From NCBI GenBank assembly GCA_005798285.1, contig SYKE01000083.1:1-57595 (forward strand): a DNA stretch of 57,595 nt, written 5' to 3'. This stretch comes from Actinomycetota bacterium. GTDB taxonomy: Bacteria > Armatimonadota > SYMT01. A program made the position numbers and the translations under genes. This document shows, piece after piece, positions 9,219 through 57,595 of the stretch. Below the pieces are notes generated by a model. That model searched no databases. It saw only the letters and a list, made by a program, of their open reading frames with translations, and had not been told where the DNA came from. The first letter of the stretch is position 1; every line of letters begins with the position of its first letter.

Positions 9219-9229
9219 TTCAGGTGGCC

Positions 9230-26853: not shown

Positions 26854-27118
26854 GTCGCTGCGCCTCCCCCGGAGGTTAAGGCTCGCCGACTCCGCCGCCT
26901 GATCGGCGCCGGTACGGTATCGCTTTCCGTCGGCACGGGATAACATACAGGTCGCCCCACCGGAGCCCTGCTTCGGTGACATCTTGTTGTCGTCTTGATG
27001 CGGCGTCCCGGGCTCGTTGGGTGGCGGAGAACCCGGAAGTTGTGGTGTTTCCCACGCGCGTTCGCGCCTCGAGGCGCCCACTCTGCTCTTCTTTCCGCTG
27101 CTCCACAAGAGAGTCCCC

Positions 27119-34555: not shown

Positions 34556-34622
34556 GGAGAACTCGTCGCGGCCCAGCTTGCGGGGGGCGGCCTCATCCCC
34601 TGCGATTCCGAAGGAGCCTTCC

Positions 34623-41218: not shown

Positions 41219-42073
41219 ATGGCAGAAGGGAACGGAACGATGTCCCCAGGCGTTGAGGCAGAACTTCTTGCGGCTTCCCAGCCGCTCCGCGTACCCGGTC
41301 AGGGCGACATGCGAGTGCTCTCCCAGGGTGCGGTTCAGCGAATCGCCGCCCAGGAGGGCGTCACGGCCTGGGAGATCGAAGCGGCAGCGCTCGAGGCAGG
41401 GGTGGCGCCGATCCACTACCTCCGAAACCTTTCTCGCTTCGGTTTTTCGGGTCAGATCCGGTTGCTGCGATCCTCCGTTTGTCTCGTGGGTGATCCTCGC
41501 GTTACCCTGAAGATTGCGGCCCGTCTCGCACAATCCGGGGTCGGTCGCTTTGTTCTGATACCCAGCGGCGACTCCGATCCACCGACGCGAGAGCCGCTGC
41601 AACCCCGGGCCGAGGCGGAGATCCGATCAGCGAACCGGAGCGCCGAGGTCTCCATTGAAACAGCGGATCTCAAGCGCGGCGACGTCCGACTTGTGCTGAA
41701 GCGGTCCAACGTGGCCATCGGGTTGCTTGCTCAGGCGATGGAAGAGCAGCTCCTGGAGTTTGCCTGTAAGGTGACGCGGGTCCCGTTGGTGCTCGGCGGG
41801 GTGGACGGGATGGAGTGTCAGGCGCTCACGGTCCTGCCGGGAGAGTCCGGGGTTGCGCTGGTGTACCGGCCAACCCAGAGCCACATTCGGTCACAGCGAT
41901 CCGATGCGCTCCTGTCGGACGTGTCGGTGATGATGGTTGCCGGGTGGGTGGCGGAACAGGCCGTGCAGCTCTTGCTGGGAGAGGGCGCTCTCCTCGCGGG
42001 GCGGTTGCGATACGCCCATTTCGGTAAGGGCGAGATGGTAGAAGCGCCTTTGCGGGGCTCGGAGCAAGGATGA
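41219..42073 (+). CDS. hypothetical protein, ThiF/MoeB(E1)-like fold with degenerate nucleotide-binding loop
   Basis: 284 aa. HYLRNLSRFGFSGQIRLLRSSVCLVGDPRVTLKIAARLAQSGVGRFVLIPSGD aligns by eye with the ThiF-family N-terminus, but GxGGxG is replaced by GDPRVT. The C-terminal MVAGWVAEQAVQLLLGEGALLAGRL matches the ThiF tail. Confidence 0.4.
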   Translation: MAEGNGTMSPGVEAELLAASQPLRVPGQGDMRVLSQGAVQRIAAQEGVTAWEIEAAALEAGVAPIHYLRNLSRFGFSGQIRLLRSSVCLVGDPRVTLKIAARLAQSGVGRFVLIPSGDSDPPTREPLQPRAEAEIRSANRSAEVSIETADLKRGDVRLVLKRSNVAIGLLAQAMEEQLLEFACKVTRVPLVLGGVDGMECQALTVLPGESGVALVYRPTQSHIRSQRSDALLSDVSVMMVAGWVAEQAVQLLLGEGALLAGRLRYAHFGKGEMVEAPLRGSEQG

Positions 42074-43206
42074 CAGGTCGAGGCACGGCGGTAATCTTCG
42101 GGGCGGGGAGCATCGGACGCGGCTTCATGGGGCAGATCCTGCACGAAGCCGGGCTGGAACTGGTGTTTGTCGAAGCCAACCCCGCCCTCGTGGACGAGCT
42201 GAATCGAGCCGGCCGCTACCCGTTGCTCCTCGTCGGCCCAACTCGCCACGAGCGACTGGAGATCGACGGAGTCCGTGCCGTTTCCGCGATGGACGTGGAT
42301 GCGGTGGCTCGAGAGCTCGCTCACTGTGAGGTTGCGTGTTCGGCGGTCGGGGTCCGGATCCTGCCCCGTATCGCACCCGCTGTGGCGCTCGGAGCCGCCC
42401 TCCGTCGAGATGAGGGTGATCGACCGTTGAACCTGATCCTCTGCGAAAACCAGCTCCACTCCTCGAGGATCTTGCGGGATGCGGTGATGGCTCAGGAGCA
42501 TCCTCCGGTGCTCGATCACTTTGGGCTGGTTGAGAGCGTGATTGGTCGAATGGTGCCGCTTCCGGATCCGTCTCGAGGAGGAGATCCATTAGAGGTGCGC
42601 GCTGAAGACCACATGCAGTTGCCGCTGGATGCTGCCGCCATTCGAGGCGAGTTACCGGTCCATCCGGCGTTCCGCCCGGTGTCTCCGTTTGAACCGTGGG
42701 TGGAACGGAAACTGTTTCTCACCAACATGGGCCATGCGACCGCCGCGTACGTCGGTGATCTGTTCGGGTGCAACACGATCGCGGAAGCGATGCAGGTGGA
42801 GGCGGTCGCTTCCGTCGTTCGGACCGCAATGGAGGCTGCGTCGGCCGCCCTGAGTATGGCGCACTCGTTTCCGCTTCCGGAGCTTCTCGACGAGACCAAG
42901 GACCTGCTGATCCGCTTCGCGAACCCAGGGCTGGAGGACACGGTGAGCCGCGTCGGGCGGGACCCCGGGCGAAAACTCGGACGTGAGGATCGACTCATCG
43001 GAGCAGCATTGCTATGCCTGAAGTCGGGCCTGAATCCCGCTCCGGTTTGCGTCGGCATTGCCGCAGCGCTCCGATTTGAGACCTCCGGTCCGAAACGACC
43101 CGCGCTGGAAGCGTTCGAGGCACTCGCGGGCTACTCCGCGCCGGCGGAGCTCAGCGAGGCCATTCTGCAAGCCGATCACGTGGTCGACGGTCTTCAACCC
43201 GGCTGA
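42070..43206 (+). CDS. mannitol-1-phosphate 5-dehydrogenase-like (mannitol dehydrogenase family) oxidoreductase
   Basis: 378 aa. The Rossmann start is AVIFGAGSIGRGFMGQIL. LILCENQ and KLFLTNMGHATAAYVG follow. An ATGA overlap joins it to the preceding gene. Confidence 0.6.
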   Translation: MTGRGTAVIFGAGSIGRGFMGQILHEAGLELVFVEANPALVDELNRAGRYPLLLVGPTRHERLEIDGVRAVSAMDVDAVARELAHCEVACSAVGVRILPRIAPAVALGAALRRDEGDRPLNLILCENQLHSSRILRDAVMAQEHPPVLDHFGLVESVIGRMVPLPDPSRGGDPLEVRAEDHMQLPLDAAAIRGELPVHPAFRPVSPFEPWVERKLFLTNMGHATAAYVGDLFGCNTIAEAMQVEAVASVVRTAMEAASAALSMAHSFPLPELLDETKDLLIRFANPGLEDTVSRVGRDPGRKLGREDRLIGAALLCLKSGLNPAPVCVGIAAALRFETSGPKRPALEAFEALAGYSAPAELSEAILQADHVVDGLQPG

Positions 43207-44036
43207 AGCGCACCTCGAATCGCACAGACTTCTCGCAGCACCCCGCACGCCTCGTCCGGGGTGAGCTGAGCCGCCGCGTCACTGAGCGCCGCCGCAGGGT
43301 TGGTGTGGACTTCGAGAAACAGAGCGTCGATCCCCACCGCAGCGGCAGCCCTCGCGAGGTGCGGGGCAAACTCCCGCGTCGCGCCACTCTGCGAGCCCAA
43401 TCCGCTGGGCTGCTGCAGGCTGTGGGTGACATCGAAACAAACCGGATAGCCGAGCGCCCGCATGGTCGGAAGTCCCCGAAAGTCCACAACCAGCGTGTTG
43501 TAACCGAAGGTGCTGCCTCTCTCGGTCAAGAGGACCCCCGTGCAGCCGGCTTCCGACAGCTTCTCCACGACGGGTCGCATGTCCCAGGGAGCCATGAACT
43601 GGGCCTTTTTCACGTTCACCGGCCGACCGGTCCGCGCGGCTGCCACCAGCAGATCCGTCTGTCGGGCCAGGAAGGCGGGGATCTGGAGCATGTCCACCAC
43701 TGCCGCGGCCGGAGCTGCCTGCCAGGGCTCGTGGATGTCCGTCAGAACAGGCACGCCGAGCTCCGACGTCACTCGCCGCAGGATCTCCAGCCCCCCATCC
43801 AGACCGGGTCCTCTGGGTGAGGAGAGACTCGTCCGATTCGCCTTGTCGAAGCTGCCCTTGAAAATATAGTCGCAGTCCAGTTGGCTGCACAGGTCCCGCA
43901 TGCTCCGCCCGACATCGAGGCAGAGCTCCAGCGACTCGAGCATGCAAGGCCCTGCGATCACGGTAAGCCGGCCCGCCCCGATGACGAAGTCCCTCAGTCG
44001 AAAGGCCTTCACCGGCGTCGATGCGGAACCCATCAC
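43194..44036 (-). CDS. kdsA: 3-deoxy-8-phosphooctulonate (KDO8P) synthase
   Basis: 280 aa with VIAGPCMLES, IFKGSFDKANRTS, TDIHE, QIPAFLARQTDL, NVKKAQF, LTERG and FDVTHSLQ. Confidence 0.9.
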   Translation of the reverse strand: MMGSASTPVKAFRLRDFVIGAGRLTVIAGPCMLESLELCLDVGRSMRDLCSQLDCDYIFKGSFDKANRTSLSSPRGPGLDGGLEILRRVTSELGVPVLTDIHEPWQAAPAAAVVDMLQIPAFLARQTDLLVAAARTGRPVNVKKAQFMAPWDMRPVVEKLSEAGCTGVLLTERGSTFGYNTLVVDFRGLPTMRALGYPVCFDVTHSLQQPSGLGSQSGATREFAPHLARAAAAVGIDALFLEVHTNPAAALSDAAAQLTPDEACGVLREVCAIRGALQPG

Positions 44037-44776
44037 GCGTCTCCCCCGAACTCCCCGCGGGCAAACATCTCGCGTACGCGCTCGAGGTCCTCTTCGGTAT
44101 CCACTCCGATCGAGTCGGCGGAGCTGAGGAGAACCAGGATTCGGTAGCCGTGCTCCAGCACCCGAAGCTGCTCGAGCGCCTCGGCCTGCTCCAGTGGCGT
44201 CGGCGCCATCGTAGAGTACTTCAGAAGAAACTCGCGTCTGTAGGCGTAAAGTCCTTTGTGCTTCAGGTGGGGCCCGCCCGAGCCCGATCGGTAGTAGGGG
44301 AGCGGCAGCCGGCTGAAATAGAGGGCGAAGCCCGCCTGATCGCGGACCACTTTGACCGCCGAGGGCGCCGTAACGTCGCGCGGATCCCGGATCGGAACCG
44401 CCACCGTTGACATCACCAGGTCGGGCTGAGTCTCGAACGGGGTGGCCACGAGATCAATCTCGGCCGGGTCCAACGTCGGCTCGTCGCCCTGAATGTTCAC
44501 CACCACATCCGCGTCCAGGCCGGCGGCCACCTCGGCGATGCGATCGGTGCCGGACGGATGATCCGCCCGGGTGAGCGCGACCTCTCCTCCGAAGGCTCGG
44601 ACGGCAGACTCGATCCGCGGATCATCGGTTGCAATGATGACACGAGTCAGGCTCTTCGCCTTCCTGGCCTGCCGGTACACATGTTCAATCATCGTCCGCC
44701 CGGCGATCTCCGCCAGCGCTTTGCCCGGCAGCCGCGACGACGCATACCGTGCCGGAATGATCCCCACCGCTACCAT
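44033..44776 (-). CDS. kdsB: 3-deoxy-manno-octulosonate cytidylyltransferase
   Basis: The ORF track extends to 44869. The ATG at complement 44774-44776 (AAGGGGA 7-8 nt upstream) gives MVAVGIIPARYASSRLPGKALAEIAGRTMIEHVY, then IATDD and VNIQGDEP. Its stop overlaps the kdsA start (GTGATG). Confidence 0.9.
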   Translation of the reverse strand: MVAVGIIPARYASSRLPGKALAEIAGRTMIEHVYRQARKAKSLTRVIIATDDPRIESAVRAFGGEVALTRADHPSGTDRIAEVAAGLDADVVVNIQGDEPTLDPAEIDLVATPFETQPDLVMSTVAVPIRDPRDVTAPSAVKVVRDQAGFALYFSRLPLPYYRSGSGGPHLKHKGLYAYRREFLLKYSTMAPTPLEQAEALEQLRVLEHGYRILVLLSSADSIGVDTEEDLERVREMFARGEFGGDA

Positions 44777-45052
44777 CAAGCGTCCCCTTCTTTCACCTGG
44801 AGCCCCACTGCAGACTCTTCCGGAGTTGCGCCGTCGTCGATTGGCGAGGAGCGGGACGCCAGGAGTCATTGCGATCCGTGCTGCAACTCTCGATCAACTT
44901 CGGGGACGACCCCCGTCGGGCACATCCGCATGGTATCTCCGTCGCGGCGGCCGGGAGCGGTGTGCGGTTCAACGGGCGCAGGTTCTCCGGCTCGCAACCG
45001 TGCATAATCTATGTGGAACCATTGCGTAGTTTGGCGGGGGGAGCGGGCGCCG

Positions 45053-46405
45053 ATGCTCGAAGTCGGAAGTCTGAAGGATTGGACCTGTGCGGGAGTTCGC
45101 CGCCGGTCGGTGCTGCAACTGGGAGCCGCGGGAGCGCTGGGCCTCTCGATGGCGCGGCCCGGAGTTGCGGCATCGGGGGAGATGTCGGTACTGTGCATCT
45201 TCCTCCGCGGCGGAGTTTCCCACCTCGATACGTGGGACATGAAACCGGACGCACCCATCCCCGATGCGCGCGGCGAGTTCAAGCCGATCCCGACCAATGT
45301 CCCGGGATTGCAGTTTTGCGACCTCCTGCCACTGCTCGCGAAGCAAGCCGATAAGCTCACGGTGCTGCGGGGCGCGACGCATCGCGAAGGCGAGCACGAT
45401 CGGGCGATGCAGTGGATGCTCACCGGTCAGCCGGCCCAGGCGGGCCGGGTGTTCCCGAACTTCGGTTCCGTCATCGGCCGCTATAAGCCGGGCCACACGC
45501 CCATCCCCGCCGCTCTCCACGTTCAAGCCGTGGGTATCGGAAACCCGATGGCGCCGCCGGCTCCGGCAGACTATCCGGGTGTGGGCGCCGGGTTCATGGG
45601 CGCGAGCCATCAGCCGTTCCTGGTGCCGGACCCCGAGAAGCTGAGTGAAGTGGATTGGCTCAAGCCGGCCGAAATCATTCCCGCCCGGCTGGATCGGCGG
45701 CGGGACTTGCTTCACCAGTTGGACGGGTTCCAGGCGCGGAGTGAAACCGCCGGGCTGGAGAATCACAGTGTCGCCTATCGACGGGCGATGGCGGTCATCA
45801 CATCTCCCGAAGCCAAACAGGCCTTCTCACTCGATAGCGAGAAAGCCGCGCTTCGCGACCGTTACGGGCGCCACGAGTTCGGCCAGAGCTGTCTCCTGGG
45901 GCGGCGACTCATTGAGACCGGTGTTCGATACGTGCAGGTCAACTGGTCGGCTCGCGGTTGGGAAGCGATCACAAAAAAGGATGATCTGTTCACGAGATCG
46001 ACCTTCGACTCGCACTTCGGCCACTTCCCCTGGCTCCGTCGGCAGCTCCCACGCCTGGATCAAGGGCTCTCGACCCTGCTGGCGGACCTGGCGGACCGAG
46101 GCACCCTGAAGCGAACCCTGGTCGTCGTTCTCACCGATTTCGGTCGCAGTGCGAAGGTGAACGGAGACGGCGGCCGAGACCACTGGACCAACGCCTTCAC
46201 GGTGTTGATGGCGGGCGGAGGTCTGGAAGGCGGGCGGATCCTGGGCAACACCGACGCGAATGGCCAGGAGGTGACCGATGGTCGTTTCACACCCGACCAG
46301 CTTGTCAATTCCGTCTACGGGCTGTGCGGACTCGACGTCCCCGTCACCCTGCGGATCGCCGGCATTGTGCCCCAGGGCGCCGAGGGCATCCCAGGACTGA
46401 TCTAG
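45053..46405 (+). CDS. DUF1501 domain protein (sulfatase-fold, Tat-exported)
   Basis: The preferred ATG at 45053 (GGGGGAG upstream) gives MLEVGSLKDWTCAGVRRRSVLQLGAAGALG, a twin-arginine signal. FLRGGVSHLDTWDMKPDAP and GGRDHWTNAFTVLMAGGG are DUF1501 hallmarks as I recall them. Confidence 0.75.
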   Translation: MLEVGSLKDWTCAGVRRRSVLQLGAAGALGLSMARPGVAASGEMSVLCIFLRGGVSHLDTWDMKPDAPIPDARGEFKPIPTNVPGLQFCDLLPLLAKQADKLTVLRGATHREGEHDRAMQWMLTGQPAQAGRVFPNFGSVIGRYKPGHTPIPAALHVQAVGIGNPMAPPAPADYPGVGAGFMGASHQPFLVPDPEKLSEVDWLKPAEIIPARLDRRRDLLHQLDGFQARSETAGLENHSVAYRRAMAVITSPEAKQAFSLDSEKAALRDRYGRHEFGQSCLLGRRLIETGVRYVQVNWSARGWEAITKKDDLFTRSTFDSHFGHFPWLRRQLPRLDQGLSTLLADLADRGTLKRTLVVVLTDFGRSAKVNGDGGRDHWTNAFTVLMAGGGLEGGRILGNTDANGQEVTDGRFTPDQLVNSVYGLCGLDVPVTLRIAGIVPQGAEGIPGLI

Positions 46406-46417
46406 GGCTGCGCGTGG

Positions 46418-46451
46418 ATCGGCCCGCATCTCGGAGGAGATGGGGGCCGAT
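46418..46451. terminator. long hairpin between convergent genes (possible bidirectional terminator)
   Basis: ATCGGCCC-G-CATCTC, loop GGAG, then GAGATG-G-GGGCCGAT gives 14 paired positions with one G-G mismatch. TT follows. It lies between the stops at 46405 (+) and 46484 (-). Confidence 0.5.
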
Positions 46452-46483
46452 TTGCCCCAACGCAAAGAACGTCGGGCAGTTCG

Positions 46484-47356
46484 TCAGGCTTTCAGGTGGC
46501 GAGTGAAGTAGGCAATCGTCGCCGCTTCAGCCCTGGCCAGGTCCTCGCCGCGAAACCCGTGCCCCGCCCCCGACATGGTCATCAACTGCGCTTCCACCTC
46601 GCACGACAGCAACCGATCCACCAGCCAGACCGACTGCTCGTAGGCCACGTACTTGTCTTCGGTGCCGTGAATGCACAGCGTGGGACAGGAGTCGGGATTC
46701 ACCCAGAAGAGCGGGCTGGAGAGGATGTGGTTCTTCCGCGCCTTCACGAGATCCGCGCCGAGGTAGAGCGGCAGGACCTCGTGGGCATCCACACTCTTCC
46801 CGTAGGAGTGCGTGAAGTCATTGGCGCCGTAGTGGTTGACCACGCAGGTCACCGCGGACGACTGCTCCGGGTTGCCGCCGTCACCCTCGAAGCGCGCCAC
46901 TCCCGCCGTCACACCAAGCATCTGCGCCAACGTGCCGCCGGCCGAACCTCCCATCGTGCCGATCCGGTCAGGACGAATCCGGTACTTCGAGGCGTTCGCG
47001 CGCATCCAGCGAACCGCGGCTTTGCAATCGTGAACGGCGGCCGGGAACGGATGCTTCGGCGCGAGACGATAGCCGATCGTCACCGCCGCGAATCCCGCTC
47101 CGGCGAGATTCTTGATCATCCCGTCGTAGCCCTGGCGCGTGCCGGCCCGGAACCCGCCGCCATGAATGCACACCACGCCGGGGAACGGGCCTTCACCTGC
47201 CGGTAGAGCCAGGTTGAGCTGGAGCTTCTCGCCCGCTCCCGTGGCGTACTCCAGGTCATTCATCACCGTTACAGCGGCCTGAGTCGCGGCGACTCCTGCC
47301 GCAGCGGGGACCAGCGTCGCTGCCGCAGACGCTGCAATCAGTTCTCTTCGATTCAT
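46484..47356 (-). CDS. alpha/beta hydrolase (esterase/lipase, HGGG type), Tat-exported
   Basis: The preferred ATG at complement 47354-47356 (GGAG 7 nt upstream) gives MNRRELIAASAAATLVPAAAGVAA. It has the oxyanion motif VCIHGGGF and the nucleophile elbow GGSAGG. Confidence 0.7.
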   Translation of the reverse strand: MNRRELIAASAAATLVPAAAGVAATQAAVTVMNDLEYATGAGEKLQLNLALPAGEGPFPGVVCIHGGGFRAGTRQGYDGMIKNLAGAGFAAVTIGYRLAPKHPFPAAVHDCKAAVRWMRANASKYRIRPDRIGTMGGSAGGTLAQMLGVTAGVARFEGDGGNPEQSSAVTCVVNHYGANDFTHSYGKSVDAHEVLPLYLGADLVKARKNHILSSPLFWVNPDSCPTLCIHGTEDKYVAYEQSVWLVDRLLSCEVEAQLMTMSGAGHGFRGEDLARAEAATIAYFTRHLKA

Positions 47357-47406
47357 TTCAAGCTCCCGCGCGGGGTAACTCGCCCCGCCCATCCTTCGCT
47401 CTTCGG

Positions 47407-50109
47407 TCAGCGCCGCTCATACTGCTTCCAGAGCCTTGTGTGCCGGCTCTCGAGGCTCACCTTTTGCCCCTGAATGAACAGGTGCTTCACATGTGTTCGT
47501 GGATCCAAAAGGTCTCCGTCGGTGACGACCAGGTTGCCCACCTTACCGATTTCCAGGCTACCAACCTGATCCGCGATTCCGAGTATCTCCGCGGGCCAGA
47601 GGGTAACTGCCTTGAGCGCTTCCTCTCGAGAGAGCCCCGAGCCCGACGCAACGCCTGCGTCGAAGGGAAGGTTTCGGGAGTTGGCGGTATCCCCGGAGAC
47701 GATCGCACACTTCACCCCCGCGCGGGTGAGGATCGCCGGCGTGGCAAAGCGGACGTCGTAGGGATCGTCCTCACGGCTTGGTAGGCTGAGGAGTGGGCCG
47801 TAGAGAACCGCCGCGCCCGCATCCTTAAGGAACCCGGCCATCGCTGCCGACTCCGCGCCTCCCACAATGACGACCTTTAGCTTTTGGATGCGAGCATACT
47901 CCACCGCAGCCCGGATCTCGGACCGCGTGTTGGCATTCGCCAACAGGGGGATTTCGCCCTGGATCAACGGGGTCAGGGCCGCTAGGCGTACGTCCAGTTT
48001 CGGAGCCGGCGTACTGCCCCCCGCGCGAGCGGCTTCCACGGCCTTCAGATACTGCCGCGCGTCATCCAGGAGTTGGGTCAGTCCCTTGAGGCGCTGGTCA
48101 GCGGCTCGGCGACCTTCGGCCAGGGTGATCTGCCGAAAGGAGAACGTCGCCGTATCAAAGGCGCCTCGCGTGCTGGGCGCCGGAATGTTTGCCGCGAACC
48201 CCACGCTCCGCTTTAGCGCCATCTCCTCGACGGTCCATCCATCGAGATGGATGGCGGCTGCCTGACCGGCGAGAATTCCGCCCTGAGGGAGGGAGACGGC
48301 CGTCGTGACACCGTTGACTCGAGTCACCGCCACGTGATCGCTGGCCGGATGGATAGCGTCGTAAGCACGCAGGTGCGGTCGGAGTTCCTGCAGGTCCGTG
48401 GTGTCGACCGTCTCCTGGATGGAGTCGATCTCCGTCAATCCCATGGTGGTCGAGGCATCGATCAATCCGGGGTAGACGTGGAGCCCCTTGCCATCGATGA
48501 CCGTGGCTCCGGCCGGAGCTGAGAGGTTCATGCCGACTTCCAGGATCTTGCCGTCTCTCAGAAGGACTGATGTTCCGGGCGGCGCCGGCTTCGCGGCGGT
48601 GTGAACCGTCGCACCGCGGATCAGAAACGTCCCAGCGCGACCTCGGGGGGCCGGAGTGGCGCCGACAGGCCCCCCATCGGCCTCGTGGTGGTGCGCGCCG
48701 TCCTCTCGAGTTCCGCCCGCGCCCGGTCCCCGAGGCTCCGCAGCGCCTTCGCGCGGCTGGCCGCCACCCATCGGGGCCGAACGCGCTTCTTCATCCAGGA
48801 GCGACTTCTTGCGGGCGGCGAGTTGCTCGCGACGCTTCAGGTCTTCGGCTCGGTCGAACGCGACCTTCCCGTCGATCCAGACTTTTTGAGGAAGGGCATC
48901 CGAGGCAAAGGGGTGACTGTTGTAAAGCACCAGATCCGCATCTTTGCCGACGTCAATGGAGCCCACCCGACGGTCGATCCCGAGTTGAACCGCAGGGTTG
49001 AGAGTGACGAGCCGGAGCGCCTCCTCTTCGCTGAGACCGCCGTACTTGATGGCCTTGGCTGCCTCCATGTTGAGATGGCGCGCTTCTTCGGCACTGTCCG
49101 AGTTGATGGACACGACCACGCCTCTGCGCGTCATCACTGTGGCGTTGTACGGAATGGCGTCATAGGCTTCGATTTTGTACGCCCACCAGTCCGAAAAGGT
49201 GGATGCGCCGGCTCCGTGCCGGGCGATCTCATCTGCGACCTTGTAACCTTCGAGGACGTGCTGCAGGGTCGCCACCTTCACCTCGAACTCCTCGCACAGG
49301 CGAAGGAAGGCAAGAATCTCATCGGCGCGATAGCAGTGGCAGTGAACGAGTCGCCGGCCCTCAAGCACGTCAACCAGCGTGTCCAGTTCCAGATCCCGGC
49401 GAGGCGCGATGGCGCGCACGCCCCGAGAGACCCGTTCCGAGTACTGCTTCCAATCGTTTCGATAGGCCCGAGCCCGATTGAAGGCGTCGCGGATGACGTC
49501 CATGACTCCCATTCGAGTGGCAGGATATCGCCCGCCGCCCGTCGAGCCCGATCGCTTTGGATTCTCGCCGAGGGCAAACTTGATGCCGGGGGGTGCCCCC
49601 GCAAATCGCAAGGCGTCCGCCGGTTGGCCCCATCGCAGCTTGATGACCTGATTGCGCCCACCGATCGGATTGGCTGAGCCGTGGAGCACATTGGCAGTAG
49701 TCACTCCGCCCGCAAGCTCGCGGTAGATCGCGATATCTTCAGCGTCTACCACGTCTTCGATGCCGACCATCGCGGTCACGGCCAGCGACCCTTCGTTGAC
49801 AGATCCGCTGACAGCGATGTGGGAGTGGCAATCGATGATTCCCGGTGTGAGGTAGGCTCCCGAGGCATCCACGACTGTGGCGCCGGCGGGCGCGGGGATC
49901 TCCGCCCCCACTGCCGCGATCCTTCCGCCGCGGACGAGCACGTCTCCCCGTTCGATCTTCCCGTGGGACGCGGTGAGAACCGTGGCGTCTCGAATAAGCG
50001 TCACCTGCGGCGCTTCCTGAGCGGCTCGGGCGCCTTCGCGTGCCCCGATGACGGTGGTTGAGGTCAGCAGCACTCCGAGCCAGAGCGTGGCTATTGCGCT
50101 TCGCTTCAT
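47407..50109 (-). CDS. double-module amidohydrolase-family protein (active-looking N-module plus HxH-less C-module)
   Basis: 900 aa with a signal peptide. The N-module has GIIDCHSHIAV, INSDS and VGSIDVGKDADLVLY. The C-module has GLIDASTTMGL in place of HxH and VGSLEIGKVGNLVV. Its ATG abuts the stop of the upstream gene (CTAG/ATG). Confidence 0.7.
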   Translation of the reverse strand: MKRSAIATLWLGVLLTSTTVIGAREGARAAQEAPQVTLIRDATVLTASHGKIERGDVLVRGGRIAAVGAEIPAPAGATVVDASGAYLTPGIIDCHSHIAVSGSVNEGSLAVTAMVGIEDVVDAEDIAIYRELAGGVTTANVLHGSANPIGGRNQVIKLRWGQPADALRFAGAPPGIKFALGENPKRSGSTGGGRYPATRMGVMDVIRDAFNRARAYRNDWKQYSERVSRGVRAIAPRRDLELDTLVDVLEGRRLVHCHCYRADEILAFLRLCEEFEVKVATLQHVLEGYKVADEIARHGAGASTFSDWWAYKIEAYDAIPYNATVMTRRGVVVSINSDSAEEARHLNMEAAKAIKYGGLSEEEALRLVTLNPAVQLGIDRRVGSIDVGKDADLVLYNSHPFASDALPQKVWIDGKVAFDRAEDLKRREQLAARKKSLLDEEARSAPMGGGQPREGAAEPRGPGAGGTREDGAHHHEADGGPVGATPAPRGRAGTFLIRGATVHTAAKPAPPGTSVLLRDGKILEVGMNLSAPAGATVIDGKGLHVYPGLIDASTTMGLTEIDSIQETVDTTDLQELRPHLRAYDAIHPASDHVAVTRVNGVTTAVSLPQGGILAGQAAAIHLDGWTVEEMALKRSVGFAANIPAPSTRGAFDTATFSFRQITLAEGRRAADQRLKGLTQLLDDARQYLKAVEAARAGGSTPAPKLDVRLAALTPLIQGEIPLLANANTRSEIRAAVEYARIQKLKVVIVGGAESAAMAGFLKDAGAAVLYGPLLSLPSREDDPYDVRFATPAILTRAGVKCAIVSGDTANSRNLPFDAGVASGSGLSREEALKAVTLWPAEILGIADQVGSLEIGKVGNLVVTDGDLLDPRTHVKHLFIQGQKVSLESRHTRLWKQYERR

Positions 50110-51513
50110 CTAGTTGCCCTCCTCGCGCGGCCTGCGTCCACCACCCATCGGGCGCGTTTCCGGTGCGACGACCGGCTCATACACCTTGCCGTCAATGACG
50201 ATGTGCCGAATCCGTCCCGCGGCAGTGAGCGGATCGCCCTGTGAAATCACCAGGTTAGCGATTTTGCCGGGTTCGAGACTCCCGACCTGAGCGCCGACCC
50301 CAAGGATCCGAGCCGCGCCAAGCGTCAGGGACTGAAGCGCCCGGTCCGATGATAGCCCTGCGGTCACGCAGCGCTGGATGGATCGCAGGAACTCTGGAGC
50401 GCTCTGTCCCGAGGAGGCAAACGCGAAGGGTACGCCGGCGGCGGCGAGTTTGCCGGCCGTGCGCGGCGCGGCCACTCTTCGTTCCATGATCTTGAGGTCT
50501 TCAGGATCATCCGGGTTCACCTCGCGGGGACGCTCCGGAAACTGCACCTGAAGCAGCACGGGCGTCTTTCCGCCGCGAAGAACATCCAGCGCTTCGTGGG
50601 CCTCGCCTCCACCTTGAACGATCCAGGGGATGGCGAACTCCGCTGCAAGGCGGCCGGCCCGGCGGACCTCCTCCGCTGTTGCCGCCGGCACCACCAGCGG
50701 CATGACCCCATCCACCACCGGCCTCAAGGCATCCAGCGCCGGGCTCGCGGTAGGACGGGACAGGCCTTTCGGGTCGGACCGATAGAGATCCCACGATTCG
50801 GAGTGCCAGCGCGCATCCAGCAGGGACTGCCGGATGAACGCGATCTTTCCCATCAAGGAACCCGGGTACTGGCGAAAACCCCCGCCCGCCAGACGGGTGT
50901 GCATGGCGACCGATGGCCGCAGCAGTGACGAGTCTCGGTCAGCCCCCAGGTTTAAAACGGCGCTCTGTCCCGAGATCACCCCCTGTCCGGGCAGGGCGAG
51001 CACGCTTGTGAATCCCGCAGTCCGCACGGCGTCGAGGCGGGCCGTGAAGTCGAGCGGCTGCTCCCAGACCCGCACGTGAGCGCTCAGGGGTGGGGTAGTC
51101 GGACCCGCGGCAGCCGGAGCACCGCGTCGACCCCCGCCCATCGGAGGGGCCGCCGCAGCCTCTGGGGCGGATGGGGTCAGGACTTCAGATCCGGCATCGA
51201 TAAACCCAGGACACACCGTCAGCCCCGCGCCTTCGATCACCTTCGCGTCGGCGGGAACCTTTGCATCCGCGCCGAGAGACTCGATCAGTCCGTCACGGAC
51301 GATCAAGTTGCCCTTCTCGATCACCGAACCGGATACCGTAACCAGTCGGGCGCCGGTGATTGCCAGTGCGGTCGGGGGATCGGCAGACGTCGCGGCGACC
51401 AGACCGATCGCCAGCAGACCAGCGCTTAGTGCGGCGGACAATATTCGTATTTGACCCGACCTGACGTCGGGGCCGCCGGGTGGAGCCTCGGCTGAAGGGG
51501 AGTTCGGGACCAT
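50110..51513 (-). CDS. amidohydrolase-fold protein lacking the HxH metal motif
   Basis: The ORF track runs to 51657. Starts at M36 (51552) or M49 (51513) precede the TM/signal segment IRILSAALSAGLLAIGLVAATSA. GFIDAGSEV replaces GxIDxHxH, and the tail is VGSLEPGKIANLVISQGDPL. Confidence 0.6.
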   Translation of the reverse strand: MVPNSPSAEAPPGGPDVRSGQIRILSAALSAGLLAIGLVAATSADPPTALAITGARLVTVSGSVIEKGNLIVRDGLIESLGADAKVPADAKVIEGAGLTVCPGFIDAGSEVLTPSAPEAAAAPPMGGGRRGAPAAAGPTTPPLSAHVRVWEQPLDFTARLDAVRTAGFTSVLALPGQGVISGQSAVLNLGADRDSSLLRPSVAMHTRLAGGGFRQYPGSLMGKIAFIRQSLLDARWHSESWDLYRSDPKGLSRPTASPALDALRPVVDGVMPLVVPAATAEEVRRAGRLAAEFAIPWIVQGGGEAHEALDVLRGGKTPVLLQVQFPERPREVNPDDPEDLKIMERRVAAPRTAGKLAAAGVPFAFASSGQSAPEFLRSIQRCVTAGLSSDRALQSLTLGAARILGVGAQVGSLEPGKIANLVISQGDPLTAAGRIRHIVIDGKVYEPVVAPETRPMGGGRRPREEGN

Positions 51514-51710
51514 GGGTGTGCCTCGCGGACTGAACCACGCTTGAACGAGCATACGGCGCCGTTCAGTTCGCTGAGGTCCGCGCCGAGTCCTCAACCCCAC
51601 CCTCGGAAAGCCGTCGAGGCGCGAACCCAAGCAGTCTCGATGGACGTTTCCAATCATTGGATTCGCCTCTGATCCGCTCGGGACGGTGTCCCGTAACCTA
51701 CTGGATTCGA

Positions 51711-54242
51711 ATGTCTCCGCGCACGTTTCTCACCCGCTGGTTCTTCGACAACCCCGTCCTCAGGATGGAGATCCGCCGTTGGGAGCGGCGACCCACGCTG
51801 ATGAGGTCGCTCGCGGTGTCAGCTGGCGTCTCGGCAGCGATCTACCTCATCCTCGTCTTCGGCAACCTGGCCCTGAACATGTGGTTCAGAGTCCCGATGC
51901 TGGGGCAGCCCACCGGAGCAGTTGCGTTCTCGATCATCGCGGGGGTGCACCTGCTGATTCAGATCAACAGCGGCAAGACGTGCTTTCCGCTCCTCGCCGA
52001 GGCCGCGGCGGAACGCCTGGAGTTTCTCCGGCTGACGGCGCTGACACCGCGCGAGCTCCTGGGCATGGTCGCAGCCGCACGACTCGTGCTCAGCAGCTAC
52101 ACGCTTCTGGCCCCGGCGCCCATCTACCTGGCACTGATGCTCTACGGCCGAATCTCCCCCCTCGACGTCGTCGGTCTCTATCTCCTGCTGCTTCTCGCAT
52201 CCACGGGCTTCCCCACGCCGATGGAGTCCACCGTGGCCCTGGCGCACCGGGTCGGTTCCGGAACGGCGGACCTGAGCACCAAAGCACTCCAGGCCAAGGG
52301 AAAGCAGGCGAATCCGTTCTGGATGTTCTGGGGAGTGGGACAGGGGATACTGCCCCAATTCATCGGACCGGTCTGGGGGGCGCTGTCCAAGCTGATTCAT
52401 GCCGTGTCATTGCTCACCGGATCCGCATTGACGACATTGCTGCCGTTGACCCTCTTGCCGATCACGGGTCGTCTCCTAGTGGAGCCACTCCCCTTCTTCG
52501 GCGCCAGAATCACCCCAGCACTTCCAGTCATCGCTCTCTGGCTCGCAGCGCAGTACCGACGCTGGTTCAACTCGTCCGAGCTCTGGTTTCGTGAAGCGGT
52601 TTCGATGAAGCTGCCCGGTCGGGGAGAGGCCACTGTATTACCCGAAGACACGGGTCGGACCGGGGAGCAAGCGGTCAACCGGGTGATGGAAACAGTGATT
52701 GCCAGCCTGGTCGGCTTCCTGACTCTCGGTTACATCTGGGCGCCCCTCATCGAGTCCGGCCTGCTCGGCAGATTTGCAGGTGGATCCGACACGCTCGCCG
52801 GTTTGACGGTCTTCCTCGTCCTGGTCTCCGGCGCACGGATCCTGGTGCAGTACGAGCGCCTCCGACTTGGAGTCACCGGCGAGCACACACGGCCGCTGTG
52901 GGGGCTGTTCCCGCTCCTAGCCCTTGCGCTCGGCCCACCCTCCGTGTCGGTTCTGATGGCGGCCATGGCCGGAGGTGAGTCCAACCTCGGGCCCTTGGTC
53001 TCTACCGTCGGCGCCCTGGGTTGCGTCGGTCTCGGCGCAATGATCGCCGGCCGCGCCTGGGGGCAGCTCTCGGCATCCTCCCTGAACTGGGCGCCCCGGC
53101 AGGTTGGGGTCCTGACGGGAGGGTGGGTCGTCTGGACCGTCGGTGGCTACCTTGTGCCACTCATTCTACTGCGCACTGGACTTCAGGCCGAGTGGATGCA
53201 CTATGCAGTCTCCTGGAGTCCCTTCTATGCCCTCCTGGCGCAGCTCCAGGGAGTGCTGAAGGTGCCGGCAGGCGTACGCAGCGAGGTGCTGCTCATCGCT
53301 CCCGCGATCGCCGGAGTCTTGCTTCAACTGCCGCAGGGACGGTTTAAGGCCTCCAGTTCCCAGATCCGAAACGAGCGATCCCAACCGGATCGATTGGAAA
53401 GCTGGCTTGTCAACGCGCTTGGACGCTTCGACAACCCCTTCACCAATCAGCGGCTTCACAGGCGCCTTCGGAAGCCCTATGGAATGCTGTTTCAGGCAGT
53501 TGGCACGCTATTGGTCTGGATGCTGATGATTGTCACCGGCCTTCAGGTGATTACCATGATCAGCGCCCGCAATGGTCTGGCTTCCCCTGGGGCGTGGTTC
53601 TTCGCCTGGGGCTGGCTCAAAGTCACCTGGGGAGTGTGGGCCGTACTGGCAGTTGCCGCCATCTCAGCCTTTTCATCGCTGATGCTGCTGTCGATCCACC
53701 TGTCAACCACCATTACCGCAGAAGCGCAACTCTCTAAGGTTCAGGGGCGCAGGACCGAGCTCTTCCGGACGCCGGTGACACCTCAGGCGGTTGTTCAGGG
53801 ACTGATTGTCGGCGAGGCGATTACCCCGCTTCCCACCTACCTGGCGCTGACCCTCATCTCATTTTCCGCCGCGATGGTTGCGATGCTCGCCGGGGCCCCC
53901 ATCTGGGCGCTTCCGGTGTGGCTACTGGTCCAACTCCAGATCCTGGCGCTCGGCATCCTTTCAGGGCTTGGGGGAATCCAGGGGTGGGAACCTCGACCCT
54001 GGACCGTCGTGCTGGTGTTCGTGTTCACCGTCGGGTTGTGCGTCGTGTTCGCCGTTCTTGGTCCTGTGGCTGTAGCGTTCTTGACGGCCGTCGGCAGAGC
54101 GCTCATTGCCGTGTGGCCAATCGTCGTCGCGGCGCTGTTCGCCAGCACTCTCATTCAAATCCCCCTCGCCTACCGGAAAGCCCTGAAGATCGTCCGCCGG
54201 TGCGGCCTCCCCGAGAACCTGGAGAAAGAGGGGGGAAAGTAA
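51711..54242 (+). CDS. giant polytopic membrane protein, two ABC-2-permease-like modules, function unknown (paralogue 1)
   Basis: Preferred start MSPRTFLTRWFFDNPVLRMEIRRWERRP. It has many hydrophobic segments. AAERLEFLRLTALTPRELLG lies about 90 aa after the N-motif. A second N-motif FDNPFTNQRLHRRLRKP sits at residue 591 of the track ORF (nt 53427), followed by GRRTELFRTPVTPQAVV. Confidence 0.6.
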   Translation: MSPRTFLTRWFFDNPVLRMEIRRWERRPTLMRSLAVSAGVSAAIYLILVFGNLALNMWFRVPMLGQPTGAVAFSIIAGVHLLIQINSGKTCFPLLAEAAAERLEFLRLTALTPRELLGMVAAARLVLSSYTLLAPAPIYLALMLYGRISPLDVVGLYLLLLLASTGFPTPMESTVALAHRVGSGTADLSTKALQAKGKQANPFWMFWGVGQGILPQFIGPVWGALSKLIHAVSLLTGSALTTLLPLTLLPITGRLLVEPLPFFGARITPALPVIALWLAAQYRRWFNSSELWFREAVSMKLPGRGEATVLPEDTGRTGEQAVNRVMETVIASLVGFLTLGYIWAPLIESGLLGRFAGGSDTLAGLTVFLVLVSGARILVQYERLRLGVTGEHTRPLWGLFPLLALALGPPSVSVLMAAMAGGESNLGPLVSTVGALGCVGLGAMIAGRAWGQLSASSLNWAPRQVGVLTGGWVVWTVGGYLVPLILLRTGLQAEWMHYAVSWSPFYALLAQLQGVLKVPAGVRSEVLLIAPAIAGVLLQLPQGRFKASSSQIRNERSQPDRLESWLVNALGRFDNPFTNQRLHRRLRKPYGMLFQAVGTLLVWMLMIVTGLQVITMISARNGLASPGAWFFAWGWLKVTWGVWAVLAVAAISAFSSLMLLSIHLSTTITAEAQLSKVQGRRTELFRTPVTPQAVVQGLIVGEAITPLPTYLALTLISFSAAMVAMLAGAPIWALPVWLLVQLQILALGILSGLGGIQGWEPRPWTVVLVFVFTVGLCVVFAVLGPVAVAFLTAVGRALIAVWPIVVAALFASTLIQIPLAYRKALKIVRRCGLPENLEKEGGK

Positions 54243-54440
54243 CGTCAGGCGCCCAAAAGGACTCCATTCGGTTCGAGTCGAATTGCACCCGATAAATTAC
54301 AATCCGGGTCTGTACAAGTCCGACAGCCGGCAGCAGTCCAGGCTGGCAGTCCCTGGGTGAAACCTGAATGGGCTGAGTCCCATGCCACTTCGCGGACCGG
54401 GACTCGCGGAGCGATCGAGCCGTTGAGGAGCGTCAGAAGC

Positions 54441-56978
54441 GTGAGAATCCTCGACAATCCGACCCTGCAGTTCGAGTTTCGACGCACCGTTCGGGGCCGG
54501 GCGCCCCTTTTTCGGGCTCTCGCGGCAGCGGCTGCGTCGCCGTGCGCCGCCCTGGTTCTCAACGAGTTAGCTGTTGGCCGAGGAGATCGCGGCAGCGAGA
54601 TCGCTGAGCGCGTCGAGGCGCTGGGCCTTGCGTTGATCCTTCACGCGATTCTCGTTGCGCTGCTGCACCGCTTTTGCTTTCCGTTTTTTACGCCACGGGG
54701 CGCATGGCGAGTGCGAGATCTCCTGCTTGCGGGCGCCGCGCCGAGCACAGTGCTTCTGCAAACTGCTCTGGCTCGCCTGACCTGCTCAGCGGCGCTCTGC
54801 GCCGTCGCCGCTCCCGGCTTTCTGATCATGGCGCTGTGGGCGAGCGTACCACCGCTCGCCGTGATCGGAGCGCTCACGCTCGCCTGGCTGCTCGTGGGCG
54901 CAGTTCCCGGCCCCTATGAAGTCGATCTGCCCTCGCTATCTCGAGGCTCGGATACAGGCTCCTCAGAACCCTCGGCGGTTCTCGACACCTTCGGATCCGT
55001 GCCCATCGCGGTCCTGCGCTGGATCTATCTCGCCAAATCGCCCCAACTCACCCGAGCCATAGCCCCGGTTACCGCCGAGATTGTCTCCCGAGTCGGTCTC
55101 AAGCTGGGTTTCACCACCGTCCCGTGGGCGCCGGAGTTCATCCTCGGCTACATCGGAACCTGGCTCATTTCCCCGGCCGAATTGTTTCAGGTTCCACTGG
55201 CGCCTCTGTTTCCGCTGATGGCTCTGTTCGGGCTCTTCCAATGGCGGACATTGGACCTGAACACTGAGCGCCTGCGTCAGACCGGGCTGAGCAACGAAAT
55301 CGGGGCGCCGACGTGCTCGACCGGCCCGCACGGTCTGGCGCTTGAGTTTGCGATGGGAGCTCTCGTCGGCCTGACGGCGCTGGGGTATGGATGGCAAGCG
55401 CTCTTCGAGAGCGGGTCCCTCGGAGCACTTGTCGGCACACAGGATACGCCGCACGCGCTTTCGGCTTTCGTCTGGCTGTTCGGCGGCGCATCTATCCTCC
55501 GCGCGTTTGCGACAGTTGGATTCGCACCCACTCGGCCCTCGGCGAGAATCGTCCCCCGACCTTCGGAGATCATCCTCGGCGTCGGACCGACGGCGGGAGC
55601 CGCGCTCATGGCGACGGCACTGTCAGGGATCGATCCATCTGTCGTTGTTCGAGCGTGCGCGGGGCTTCTGACGGTCGCTGCGGGACTCGCCGGTACGATC
55701 AACGCATTCAACGCCGCTGAGCGACTGGCAACCTGGAGAAACGTGTGGGCCGGGGTCGCTTGTCGGTGCCTCTGGATCCTCCTGCTCCCAATTGCCGCGG
55801 GAGGCCCCCTGCTGCTCGCTGCGAGCACCCAACCCCCCGCCGCTGCGCACCGGGCGCTCGCCTGGAGTCCGATCTACGTCATCCTCACCCAGATGCCGGG
55901 CTTACTGCCGGCCCCATCCTGTATTCCCGTTGGCGACCTGCCCAACGTCCAACTCGTAGCGGGCATCTCACTCGCGTTTCTCCTCGGACTGGCGCAGCGG
56001 AGCGCCACCAAACGAGGCCCCGGCCCACGTCGGCCCGCTCGCCCTCAGCGAATGGAGGAAAACGGCCCTCGCGCAGTCCCCAACTGGGCTCCGCGCTGGG
56101 ACCGAGAACGGCGACTCTCAAGGCTCGAAGAGATCCTGCTCGATGACTCGACTTCTTCAGACGAAGCTCTCTGTGTGTTGGAGGCAGCCCGCCGTCGGCG
56201 CCGCAGCCGTGCGCCCTTTTGGGAAGGGGCGACATCGTGCTTGCTCATCTCAGCGGCAGCCGGAGCCATCAACTGCTTCATCTCGCTCGTGGGCTCCCGG
56301 GTCGGGAGCATCGAACCCCTCACGGTCTTCCTGCTAGGGCCGACGTTGACTGCTTTCCAGGGTTTGGCCGGCGTCATGGGCGCGGCCGGAGGAGCGATCA
56401 TGTGGCCCACGGGGTGGAGCGATTTCGCCCTCAGCGCGCCGAGTCCCGACCGCCTGATTCGAAGCACAATCCGCGTGGCGCTGGCCCGTCAGTACGCGGC
56501 GTGGTTCGGCGCGGCCCTCGGGTGCGTCTGTGCTATCGTGGCTTCCGCCCACTTCGGATTGCAACCCTCCGCCGTGGCCGTCCTTGGGGGCTTCTGGATG
56601 GTCGGAGTCGCGTTCATCCCCCACCGGCTCCTCGTGACCGTCGGTGCAGTTGGCGATAGGAGTCCAGCCCTTCTGCTGGCGATTGCTCCCGTAATCGCCG
56701 TTACCCTGACCGCGCAGACCCTGCTCTGGCGGCTCGGATCGGGCTCCAGTGCTGTAGTCTTCCCCCAGTTGTGGACGGCGCTGATCGTCATCCCGGCGGC
56801 GCTCGCCGCATGGCTGATCGCGCTCATCCCATTTGCATATCGATCCACTCGACAACAGGTCGCCCAACACCTGTCCGTGGAGTGGATCGAACGGCAAGAG
56901 AACGGACCCCAACCGAGATCCGCCACCCATCTGGCTCTGCTTCAGTTGAAGCCCGTAGCAGATGAAAGGTTGCGCTGA
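54441..56978 (+). CDS. giant polytopic membrane protein, paralogue 2 of the 51711..54242 gene
   Basis: GTG 54441 (GAGGAG 10 nt upstream) gives VRILDNPTLQFEFRRTVRGRAPLF. Blocks homologous to paralogue 1: GALVGLTALGYGWQALFESGSLGAL versus ASLVGFLTLGYIWAPLIESGLLGRF, and ALAWSPIYVILTQMPG versus AVSWSPFYALLAQLQG. A second module starts after an Arg-rich linker. Confidence 0.6.
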   Translation: MRILDNPTLQFEFRRTVRGRAPLFRALAAAAASPCAALVLNELAVGRGDRGSEIAERVEALGLALILHAILVALLHRFCFPFFTPRGAWRVRDLLLAGAAPSTVLLQTALARLTCSAALCAVAAPGFLIMALWASVPPLAVIGALTLAWLLVGAVPGPYEVDLPSLSRGSDTGSSEPSAVLDTFGSVPIAVLRWIYLAKSPQLTRAIAPVTAEIVSRVGLKLGFTTVPWAPEFILGYIGTWLISPAELFQVPLAPLFPLMALFGLFQWRTLDLNTERLRQTGLSNEIGAPTCSTGPHGLALEFAMGALVGLTALGYGWQALFESGSLGALVGTQDTPHALSAFVWLFGGASILRAFATVGFAPTRPSARIVPRPSEIILGVGPTAGAALMATALSGIDPSVVVRACAGLLTVAAGLAGTINAFNAAERLATWRNVWAGVACRCLWILLLPIAAGGPLLLAASTQPPAAAHRALAWSPIYVILTQMPGLLPAPSCIPVGDLPNVQLVAGISLAFLLGLAQRSATKRGPGPRRPARPQRMEENGPRAVPNWAPRWDRERRLSRLEEILLDDSTSSDEALCVLEAARRRRRSRAPFWEGATSCLLISAAAGAINCFISLVGSRVGSIEPLTVFLLGPTLTAFQGLAGVMGAAGGAIMWPTGWSDFALSAPSPDRLIRSTIRVALARQYAAWFGAALGCVCAIVASAHFGLQPSAVAVLGGFWMVGVAFIPHRLLVTVGAVGDRSPALLLAIAPVIAVTLTAQTLLWRLGSGSSAVVFPQLWTALIVIPAALAAWLIALIPFAYRSTRQQVAQHLSVEWIERQENGPQPRSATHLALLQLKPVADERLR

Positions 56979-56979
56979 G

Positions 56980-57595
56980 ATGACGCCATTCCGGGGCCTG
57001 GGATACCTGTTTGACAATCCGTTTCAGGATCTTCTCCGCAGGCGGAAGTTGCGACGATCGACTGCTGAAGGCTCCTTGCGGCGAACGGTCGGCTGGTTTG
57101 TCGCCCTCTATGCAGCAGCGTTCGGGACCTGCGCCTGGTTCCACCTCCGGGCGATCGACACGGCTTCAGCACTGATTTCATCGCAGCCTGGAGTGTGGAG
57201 TTGGAGGAACGCCCGGTCTGGGACGCGTTGGAGGTACCGAATTCTACTGCCCTGGCGGAGCTCCCTCGAACCAGGTGGGAGACCTGGCTGGCGCTGCGCA
57301 CGACGAGAGTTGTTCACCTCGCCCTATTGATGCTCCCGGGACTTCCGTTGATCGCAGCGAGCATGATGTTTTCCTCGGCTCCGTGGCAATTCGCATTCGC
57401 TCTCGGACTGCTGCAGGTGTGCATCATGCTAGGAATTCCGCGGGGACTGCGCGACTTCAGCCTGATGCCGCTTGCCCCGCTGGTATTCGTGCCCAGCTTC
57501 ATCCTCGGAAAGCTGCTCCGCGGCGCCGGCGTTCCGCACGTACTCTCGCTAGAGCCCCTGTCGTCCGCGATGCGCTGGGTCGAAGCTGCGGTGGG
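56980..57595 (+). pseudogene. third paralogue of the membrane-protein family, frame-disrupted or split (continues past the window end)
   Basis: The ATG 2 nt after the paralogue-2 stop gives MTPFRGLGYLFDNPFQDLLRRRKLRR plus a TM, then decays to Trp/Arg-rich text and stops at 57330. The -1 frame is open from 57069 to the window end and encodes ELEERPVWDALEVP...HLALLMLPGLPLIAASMMFSSAPWQFAFALGLLQVCIMLG. Confidence 0.4.

Follow-up and report, generated by a model that had tools for sequence, protein, structure and literature searches.

The right-hand end of a 57,595-nucleotide (nt) stretch of DNA deposited as 'Actinomycetota bacterium' (contig SYKE01000083.1 of GenBank assembly GCA_005798285.1; the whole stretch is referred to below as the window) carries three consecutive same-strand genes, P1, P2 and gene 3, which an earlier note had described as a tandem array of membrane proteins of about 850 amino acids (aa). 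The window is best read as containing one working gene, P1, and two diverging or decaying copies, and not a three-subunit machine. P1 is tentatively read, with somewhat less than even confidence, as a double permease on one chain, built like the type V ATP-binding cassette (ABC) transporters and with an inserted third module, that docks an energising partner encoded elsewhere. The sequence is the right-hand 57.6 kb of a metagenome contig held by ENA and of its NCBI copy, and the two versions differ at two bases in the 15.9 kb that were compared (41711–57595). The differing bases lie at 48688 and 52365; because of the second, P1 has Gly at residue 219 in the window and Arg in the ENA contig.

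Predicted architecture of P1

P1 (51711–54242, forward strand) is an intact open reading frame (ORF) with an ATG start that encodes an 843-aa protein. An AlphaFold2 (AF2) model made with 29 sequences (predicted local distance difference test score, pLDDT, 83.1; predicted template modelling score, pTM, 0.81) gives, together with the family alignment, 18 long helices. Lysine and arginine are concentrated in the predicted cytoplasmic loops, with 34 residues there versus 7 in the other loops, and this bias supports an N-in topology. On this model P1 is a predicted inner-membrane protein of 18 transmembrane (TM) helices with its N terminus inside. The helices fall into three modules of six, and the expectation of a polytopic protein is borne out with a different internal plan from the two modules proposed in the earlier note.

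The N module, delimited with a module hidden Markov model (HMM), covers residues 1–312 (51711–52646, forward strand). It opens with a helix bearing the motif W..W..DNPF..RR, followed by TM1 and TM2, the EAAAERLEFLRLTALTPRELL block and TM3–6. The middle module (residues 313–556; 52650–53378, forward strand) contains six TM helices and the motifs LGYIW.P..ESG.LG and AVSWSPFYALL, both on the predicted periplasmic side. The C module (residues 557–843; 53382–54233, forward strand) repeats the pattern of the N module, with a second FDNPF..RR helix, in which the FDNPF motif begins at nt 53427, the GRRTELFRTPVTPQAVV block and six TM helices.

Across the family the N module is marked by W.EW..DNPF..DLRRW.RRG in the first helix and by EA.A.RL.F.RLLP...REL..K.G.AR between TM2 and TM3, and the corresponding C-module motifs are R.DNP...LA..R..R.P.GL and E...AR.Q.RL..LL.SP..DR.IV.G. 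The middle module has the family motifs G..W.P...SG.LG and AA.SP.Y.LL.LLPG, again predicted to be periplasmic. A β-hairpin after TM6 and a C-terminal R.A..V...R.EDDLER motif are further conserved features.

Aligning the N- and C-module alignments with hhalign gives a probability of 95.4% (E = 1.7e-8, 132 columns), and at the level of sequence profiles the internal N/C duplication is real. A BLASTP comparison of P1 with itself did not detect it. Two short DNA repeats, D5 and D16, lie at equivalent N and C positions as remnants of the duplication. The middle module was considered as a third copy and rejected, since hhalign gives a probability of about 0.2% against either N or C. The internal duplication suggested earlier thus holds for the two outer modules, within an N–middle–C protein of 18 TM helices rather than a simple two-fold one.

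A rare and unannotated family

HMMER, run exhaustively over 1.84 billion cluster representatives with a profile of P1 and P2, found 31 proteins, 29 of them with E ≤ 1e-10 and nearly all 820–885 aa long. The profile was made from P1 and P2 only, and more distant members are missed by it (a 648-aa relative, for example, was met by chance). Scans of 185,579 species genomes and of JGI metagenome contigs gave only two loci each, every one of them also known from other searches. The family is rare. It is defined by a length of about 820–885 aa, the N–middle–C order of modules, the motifs W.EW..DNPF..DLRRW.RRG, EA.A.RL.F.RLLP, G..W.P...SG.LG and SP.Y.LL.LLPG, a second DNP motif, and a C-terminal R.A..V...R.E.DLE. 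P1 carries all of these features: the length, the module order and every conserved motif. A family HMM built without P1 and P2 matches P1 end to end (HMM positions 4–848) with 520 bits (E = 1e-150), and the nearest relative of P1 is the family member P0008 (268 bits).

No characterised family matches these proteins, and the earlier note could name none with this architecture. Pfam searches with P1, P2 and the separate modules at E ≤ 1–10 returned no relevant match, and with the 29 aligned members at E ≤ 1 they returned only single chance-level matches to unrelated families (E 0.018–0.76). NCBIfam, PADLOC and PDB sequence searches with the proteins, modules and family members were empty or gave chance-level matches only. 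When P1, P2 and the 29-member profile were used in word-indexed homology searches, only the queries came back, the candidate lists being probably saturated by low-complexity hydrophobic words.

Structural likeness to ABC-2 and type V permeases

Foldseek searches of the PDB were run with the full P1 model and with the N module modelled separately (pLDDT 86.7). The top match of the full model is Rv1217c (E = 0.016, probability 0.99, 586 aligned columns, TM-score 0.23/0.31), followed by the Wzm, KpsM, ABCG and ABCH permeases. For the N module, all nine of the top nine matches are type V permeases, at borderline scores (probability 0.57–0.97, E 0.086–1.3, target TM-score (TMt) 0.36–0.52). The best of these is NosY (7o12_E; probability 0.97, E = 0.086), and a second NosY structure, 7o0y_D, reaches a TMt of 0.52. 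The alignments span nearly the whole of each type V target, and unrelated helical proteins stay below a probability of 0.1.

By definition (PMC11406275), a type V permease has a connecting helix ahead of TM1, a coupling helix between TM2 and TM3 and, preceding its last TM helix, an EH-turn-EH element. The N-module model presents its elements in an order that fits this definition: a helix at residues 3–26, TM helices at 28–59 and 68–90, short helices at 94–107, TM helices at 113–133, 136–163 and 202–236, short helices at 238–257 and a last TM helix at 270–292. The lysine and arginine bias would place the first two of the defining elements in the cytoplasm. The N module is likely to have an ABC-2-like or type V fold, and on the strength of its profile homology to N the same fold is attributed to the C module. 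Membership of the ABC-2 families is not demonstrated. The description of the array as ABC-2- or NosY-like can be kept for the fold, with NosY the top match of the N module and Rv1217c that of the full model, both borderline; it does not extend to the sequence, which has no match to a Pfam ABC2_membrane family.

The N module finds its closest structures in NosY, Wzm and PmtCD (PDB 7o12, 7o0y, 9qh1, 6oih and 6xjh; probability 0.85–0.97, TMt 0.38–0.52, alignments of 284–308 columns). Like it, they have six helices that follow an amphipathic, Arg-rich N-terminal helix, a short, conserved and helical cytoplasmic block separating TM2 from TM3, and short helices ahead of the last TM helix. They differ in being dimeric proteins of about 250 aa that are encoded beside their own ATPase, and they have no sequence match to the family in Pfam, NCBIfam or PDB searches, whereas P1 fuses three modules in one 843-aa chain and has no ATPase gene nearby. 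Rv1217c, from the Rv1217c–Rv1218c exporter of Mycobacterium tuberculosis (PDB 8k1n and 8k1p), resembles P1 in carrying two type V domains in one chain, each with its own connecting and coupling helix (PMC11406275). However, it has 12 TM helices and is co-transcribed with the ATPase Rv1218c, whereas P1 has an additional six-helix module and no ATPase in cis. The low overall TM-score between the two (0.23/0.31) indicates that the arrangement of the modules differs, or is mispredicted.

The motifs of the family can also be likened to the N-terminal motifs of the ABC2_membrane families, NP....E.R and E.E.GT.E.L...P, which are of similar shape and in the same order. The counterparts would be DNPF..(D/E)LRR ahead of TM1 and, past TM2, the N-module block EA.A.RL.F.RLLP...REL and the C-module block E...AR.Q.RL..LL.SP..DR.IV.G. 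This resemblance rests on motif shape and fold, and no family member reaches a relevant Pfam match at E ≤ 1.

Purifying selection on P1, a diverging P2 and a probable third paralogue

Only one other contig was found to carry P1. This sister-strain contig (L002) is 91% identical to the window at the nucleotide level over 46471–54834 and diverges from it inside P2. The P1 proteins of the two strains are 93.5% identical, and the ratio of non-synonymous to synonymous substitution rates (dN/dS) is 0.11 (72 non-synonymous versus 202 synonymous differences). This value is like those of the neighbouring amidohydrolase genes, and P1 is therefore a protein-coding gene under purifying selection.

P2 (54441–56978, forward strand) follows P1 after a spacer of 198 nt (54243–54440) in which no terminator-like or promoter-like site was found. 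It is an intact ORF of 845 aa from the GTG chosen by the gene caller, the ORF itself reaching back to 54357. BLASTP aligns residues 11–588 of P1 with 3–564 of P2 (E = 9e-26, 25% identity), which bears out the view that the two are homologous and far diverged. P2 keeps the length and module order of the family and the equivalents of the invariant P15, R124, E172 and G340. It has lost the second DNP motif, and both of its E..RL.F.RLLP-type blocks are degenerate. The family HMM built without P1 and P2 gives P2 only 119.8 bits (E = 1e-29), with −1.5 bits for the C module. The nearest relative of P2 is P1 (109 bits), and no other member exceeds 51 bits; this closeness to P1 and distance from all others indicate a local duplicate. 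By these comparisons P2 is a fast-evolving, degenerate copy of P1 on a long branch.

In the sister strain the P2 orthologue has lost its start and DNP motif, is interrupted by an in-frame TAG and has diverged further than the sequence around it. The remnant occupies 7818–8568 of L002, where the aligned part, approximately 7818–8405, corresponds to window 54243–54834. Synteny breaks at window 54834, and an esterase/SGL gene stands there instead of P2 and gene 3. This remnant and the loss of synteny show that a close relative can do without P2 and anything downstream of it.

Gene 3 begins one nucleotide after P2 (TGA g ATG), and not two as previously counted. Its first frame (56980–57330, forward strand) contains the YLFDNPFQDLLRRRKLRR motif and one TM helix, then Arg-rich sequence of off-frame character, and stops after 116 codons; membrane-like sequence goes on in the −1 frame (57201–57595, forward strand), where the gene caller places a partial gene (57201–57593) whose hydrophobic continuation runs off the end of the contig. 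About 200 codons are visible, split across the two frames. The first frame matches positions 11–64 of the N-module HMM weakly, with 8.6 bits, above all of 300 shuffles (maximum 3.4). The −1 frame at 57261–57443 matches positions 108–168, also weakly, with 6.8 bits; one of 300 shuffles reached at least 6 bits (maximum 6.5). The two matches are collinear across the frames, and, weak as they are, this collinearity suggests that gene 3 is probably a very diverged third paralogue whose frame was broken either in the cell by a mutation or by a misassembly close to where the contig stops. The break lies near 57150–57260 as an apparent −1 shift with no obvious slippery sequence, and is identical in the ENA and NCBI versions. 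The window and the contig both end at 57595, cutting the right flank of the array.

All of the peptides quoted in the earlier note are present where it placed them. Of its three paralogues of about 850 aa, P1 and P2 stand, and gene 3 is frame-broken at the end of the contig; the shared opening motif is found in gene 3, and the block said to follow it in each copy is degenerate in P2. With the hallmark motifs missing from P2, P2 itself lost from the sister strain and the frame of gene 3 broken, the array is best described as one working gene accompanied by diverging or decaying copies.

A second tandem array

A contig of an unrelated metagenome-assembled genome, JBKBRF010000014.1 (L004/L006), encodes an 846-aa member of the family with two paralogues, of 648 and 686 aa, directly upstream of it on the same strand (L006 3538–5484 and 5501–7561, equivalent to L004 5538–7484 and 7501–9561). 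Both shorter proteins have clear N and C modules (184 and 103 bits, and 199 and 132 bits, respectively), with approximately 75–95 residues, or about two TM helices, in place of the six-helix middle module. In layout they are the closest of the family to Rv1217c. Seven further loci (L003, L007, L008, L011, L012, L015 and L017) carry a single copy. The second array with its short N–C forms shows that tandem arrays arise repeatedly; on these profile matches the N and C modules form the core of the family, and the middle module appears to be an accessory insertion.

Genomic context of the window and of related loci

Upstream of P1 lie two amidohydrolase genes on the opposite strand, as reported before, and both are kept in the sister strain (dN/dS 0.11 and 0.13). 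The 47407–51513 region (reverse strand) encodes a 900-aa protein with a hydrophobic N-terminus (MKRSAIATLWLGVLLTSTTV) and several Amidohydro_1 and Amidohydro_3 matches that suggest a doubled amidohydrolase domain; its gene directly follows one for a 467-aa amidohydrolase, the upstream stop abutting the downstream start. The amidohydrolases are specific to this lineage and are not kept at other loci of the family, so no functional link with the array is indicated. Across the examined family loci no neighbour recurs, whether amidohydrolases, DUF5682/VWA, DUF6178 or GDPD.

Scans of 51400–57595 for promoters, terminators and repeats gave nothing above shuffled sequences. The AT skew of the forward strand is strongly negative, which fits hydrophobic coding. 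The other genes of the window are ordinary chromosomal ones and include DUF1501, and planctomycete-type genes are found at related loci. At 7464–11431 (reverse strand) an XPB/RAD25-type helicase (ERCC3_RAD25_C, Helicase_C_3, ResIII) adjoins a 733-aa protein with Helicase_C_3 only. Three long forward-strand ORFs, at 34404–37115, 24973–26169 and 27017–28228 (903, 398 and 403 aa), have no Pfam match at E ≤ 1e-5 and are unrelated to P1 and P2 by tblastn.

The locus that carries P0008 (L003, identical to L005 and L014; SYMT01000390.1/SXGS01407849.1) comes from the same sample as the ENA contig of the window. It is deposited as 'Actinomycetota bacterium' yet encodes PSCyt2/PSD1 and DUF1501, which are typical of Planctomycetota, and its taxonomic label or binning therefore looks doubtful. 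At L007 (3–2955), DUF5682 and VWA_CoxE proteins are encoded directly upstream of the member P0010 on the same strand, an arrangement seen at no other locus. At L012 (2515–7900), the member P0027 begins 60 nt after a complete ABC half-transporter (ABC_membrane plus ABC_tran), and the stop of P0027 lies within the start of a gene for a glycerophosphodiester phosphodiesterase (GDPD). Among the examined loci, L012 alone has an adjacent ABC or lipid-related gene.

Discussion

In the proposed mechanism the N and C modules of P1 would supply in one chain both of the transmembrane halves that usually come as an ABC-2 dimer, or as the Rv1217c fusion, and would together provide the path by which a lipophilic or envelope-bound substrate is translocated. 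The DNPF helix before TM1 and the RL.F.RLLP block between TM2 and TM3, both repeated in the C module, would most likely be the docking surface for an energising partner encoded elsewhere, because the most conserved motifs are on the predicted cytoplasmic face, where the connecting and coupling helices of type V permeases dock the ATPase. P2 and gene 3 would have arisen from P1 by local tandem duplication, and the constraint on them would be relaxed or altered.

Several observations weigh against this reading. The structural scores are borderline (E 0.016–0.3, TM-score at most 0.52), and no ABC2_membrane Pfam match is found in P1, P2, their modules or the 29 members, even at E ≤ 1. The ORF of P2 is intact over its full length, and another genome has a three-gene array of its own. 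Genes for ABC-2 permeases normally adjoin an ATPase gene, and no stand-alone ABC_tran gene or Walker A plus signature pattern lies within 8–10 kb of the family genes at the window, L002, L003, L006, L007, L008, L011, L015 or L017. The sole ABC ATPase signature in the 57.6-kb window is that of PstB near position 434, approximately 51 kb away within a pst operon. The earlier note had seen no ATPase on the upstream side of the array, and this can now be extended, as none follows P1 in L002 and none stands alone at about nine other loci. Planctomycete-type genomes, on the other hand, often scatter functionally linked genes, so the absence of an ATPase in cis is weak evidence.

The main alternative, possible if doubtful, is that P1 has kept the ABC-2 fold and works without any nucleotide-binding domain (NBD), as a scramblase of lipids or glycolipids, a channel, or a secondary translocator driven by an ion gradient. 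The cytoplasmic helices would then serve folding or gating, or bind a non-ABC partner, and the middle module, the conserved hairpin on the cytoplasmic side and the conserved C-terminal helix would replace the role of the ATPase. The lack of a stand-alone ATPase gene at about ten loci agrees with this, as the ABC gene at L012 encodes a complete half-transporter that includes a membrane domain. So do the additions that are specific to the family, namely the six-TM middle module with its periplasmic motifs, the β-hairpin after TM6 and the R.A..V...R.EDDLER C-terminus, and a sequence that has diverged past the reach of Pfam. However, conservation is highest in the motifs at the positions through which type V permeases touch their ATPase, nothing relevant on orphan ABC-2 permeases or ones lacking an NBD came out of a literature search, and we know of no precedent for a type V permease without an NBD. 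The present data cannot separate this alternative from docking of a partner encoded in trans. A more specific proposal is rather unlikely: that an ATPase-independent translocator or scramblase arose from a fused ABC-2 pair by insertion of the third six-helix module, with the arrays reflecting diversification of substrates or partners.

It is improbable that the three paralogues assemble into a single hetero-oligomeric complex in the membrane, with the array as the functional unit. The 1-nt gap between P2 and gene 3, the intact 845-codon ORF of P2 and the independent same-strand array of 648-, 686- and 846-aa proteins in JBKBRF010000014.1 would be expected of such a complex. Nevertheless, the seven loci listed above manage with a single copy, the sister strain keeps P1 under purifying selection and has lost P2 and beyond, P2 is without the family hallmark motifs and gene 3 is frame-broken.

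That the ORFs are not real genes, or that the ABC-2 resemblance is a generic similarity of helical membrane proteins, is very improbable: high-GC DNA does give long spurious ORFs, the Foldseek E-values exceed 0.01 and there is no Pfam match, but spurious ORFs are rejected on the dN/dS of 0.11 (202 synonymous versus 72 non-synonymous differences) and on the conservation of length and motifs among 29 homologues at E ≤ 1e-10, while the AF2 models are confident and the nine top N-module matches fall in one fold class and span nearly whole targets, with other helical bundles below a probability of 0.1.

The motifs, models and loci described here provide a first handle on a family of membrane proteins that current databases leave unannotated. 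Its practical weight is limited, the family being rare, so far recorded only in metagenomes and without an attached phenotype. If the fold assignment holds, P1 and its relatives would represent an undescribed ABC-2/type V architecture, with three six-helix modules per chain, whose length is kept across distant metagenomic lineages with no ATPase gene beside it at the examined loci. The family would then be a test case either for an ABC permease fold re-used without its motor or for a permease that finds its motor in trans. Should the ATPase-independent reading prove true, the family would provide the first demonstration that a type V ABC permease fold can function with no nucleotide-binding domain.

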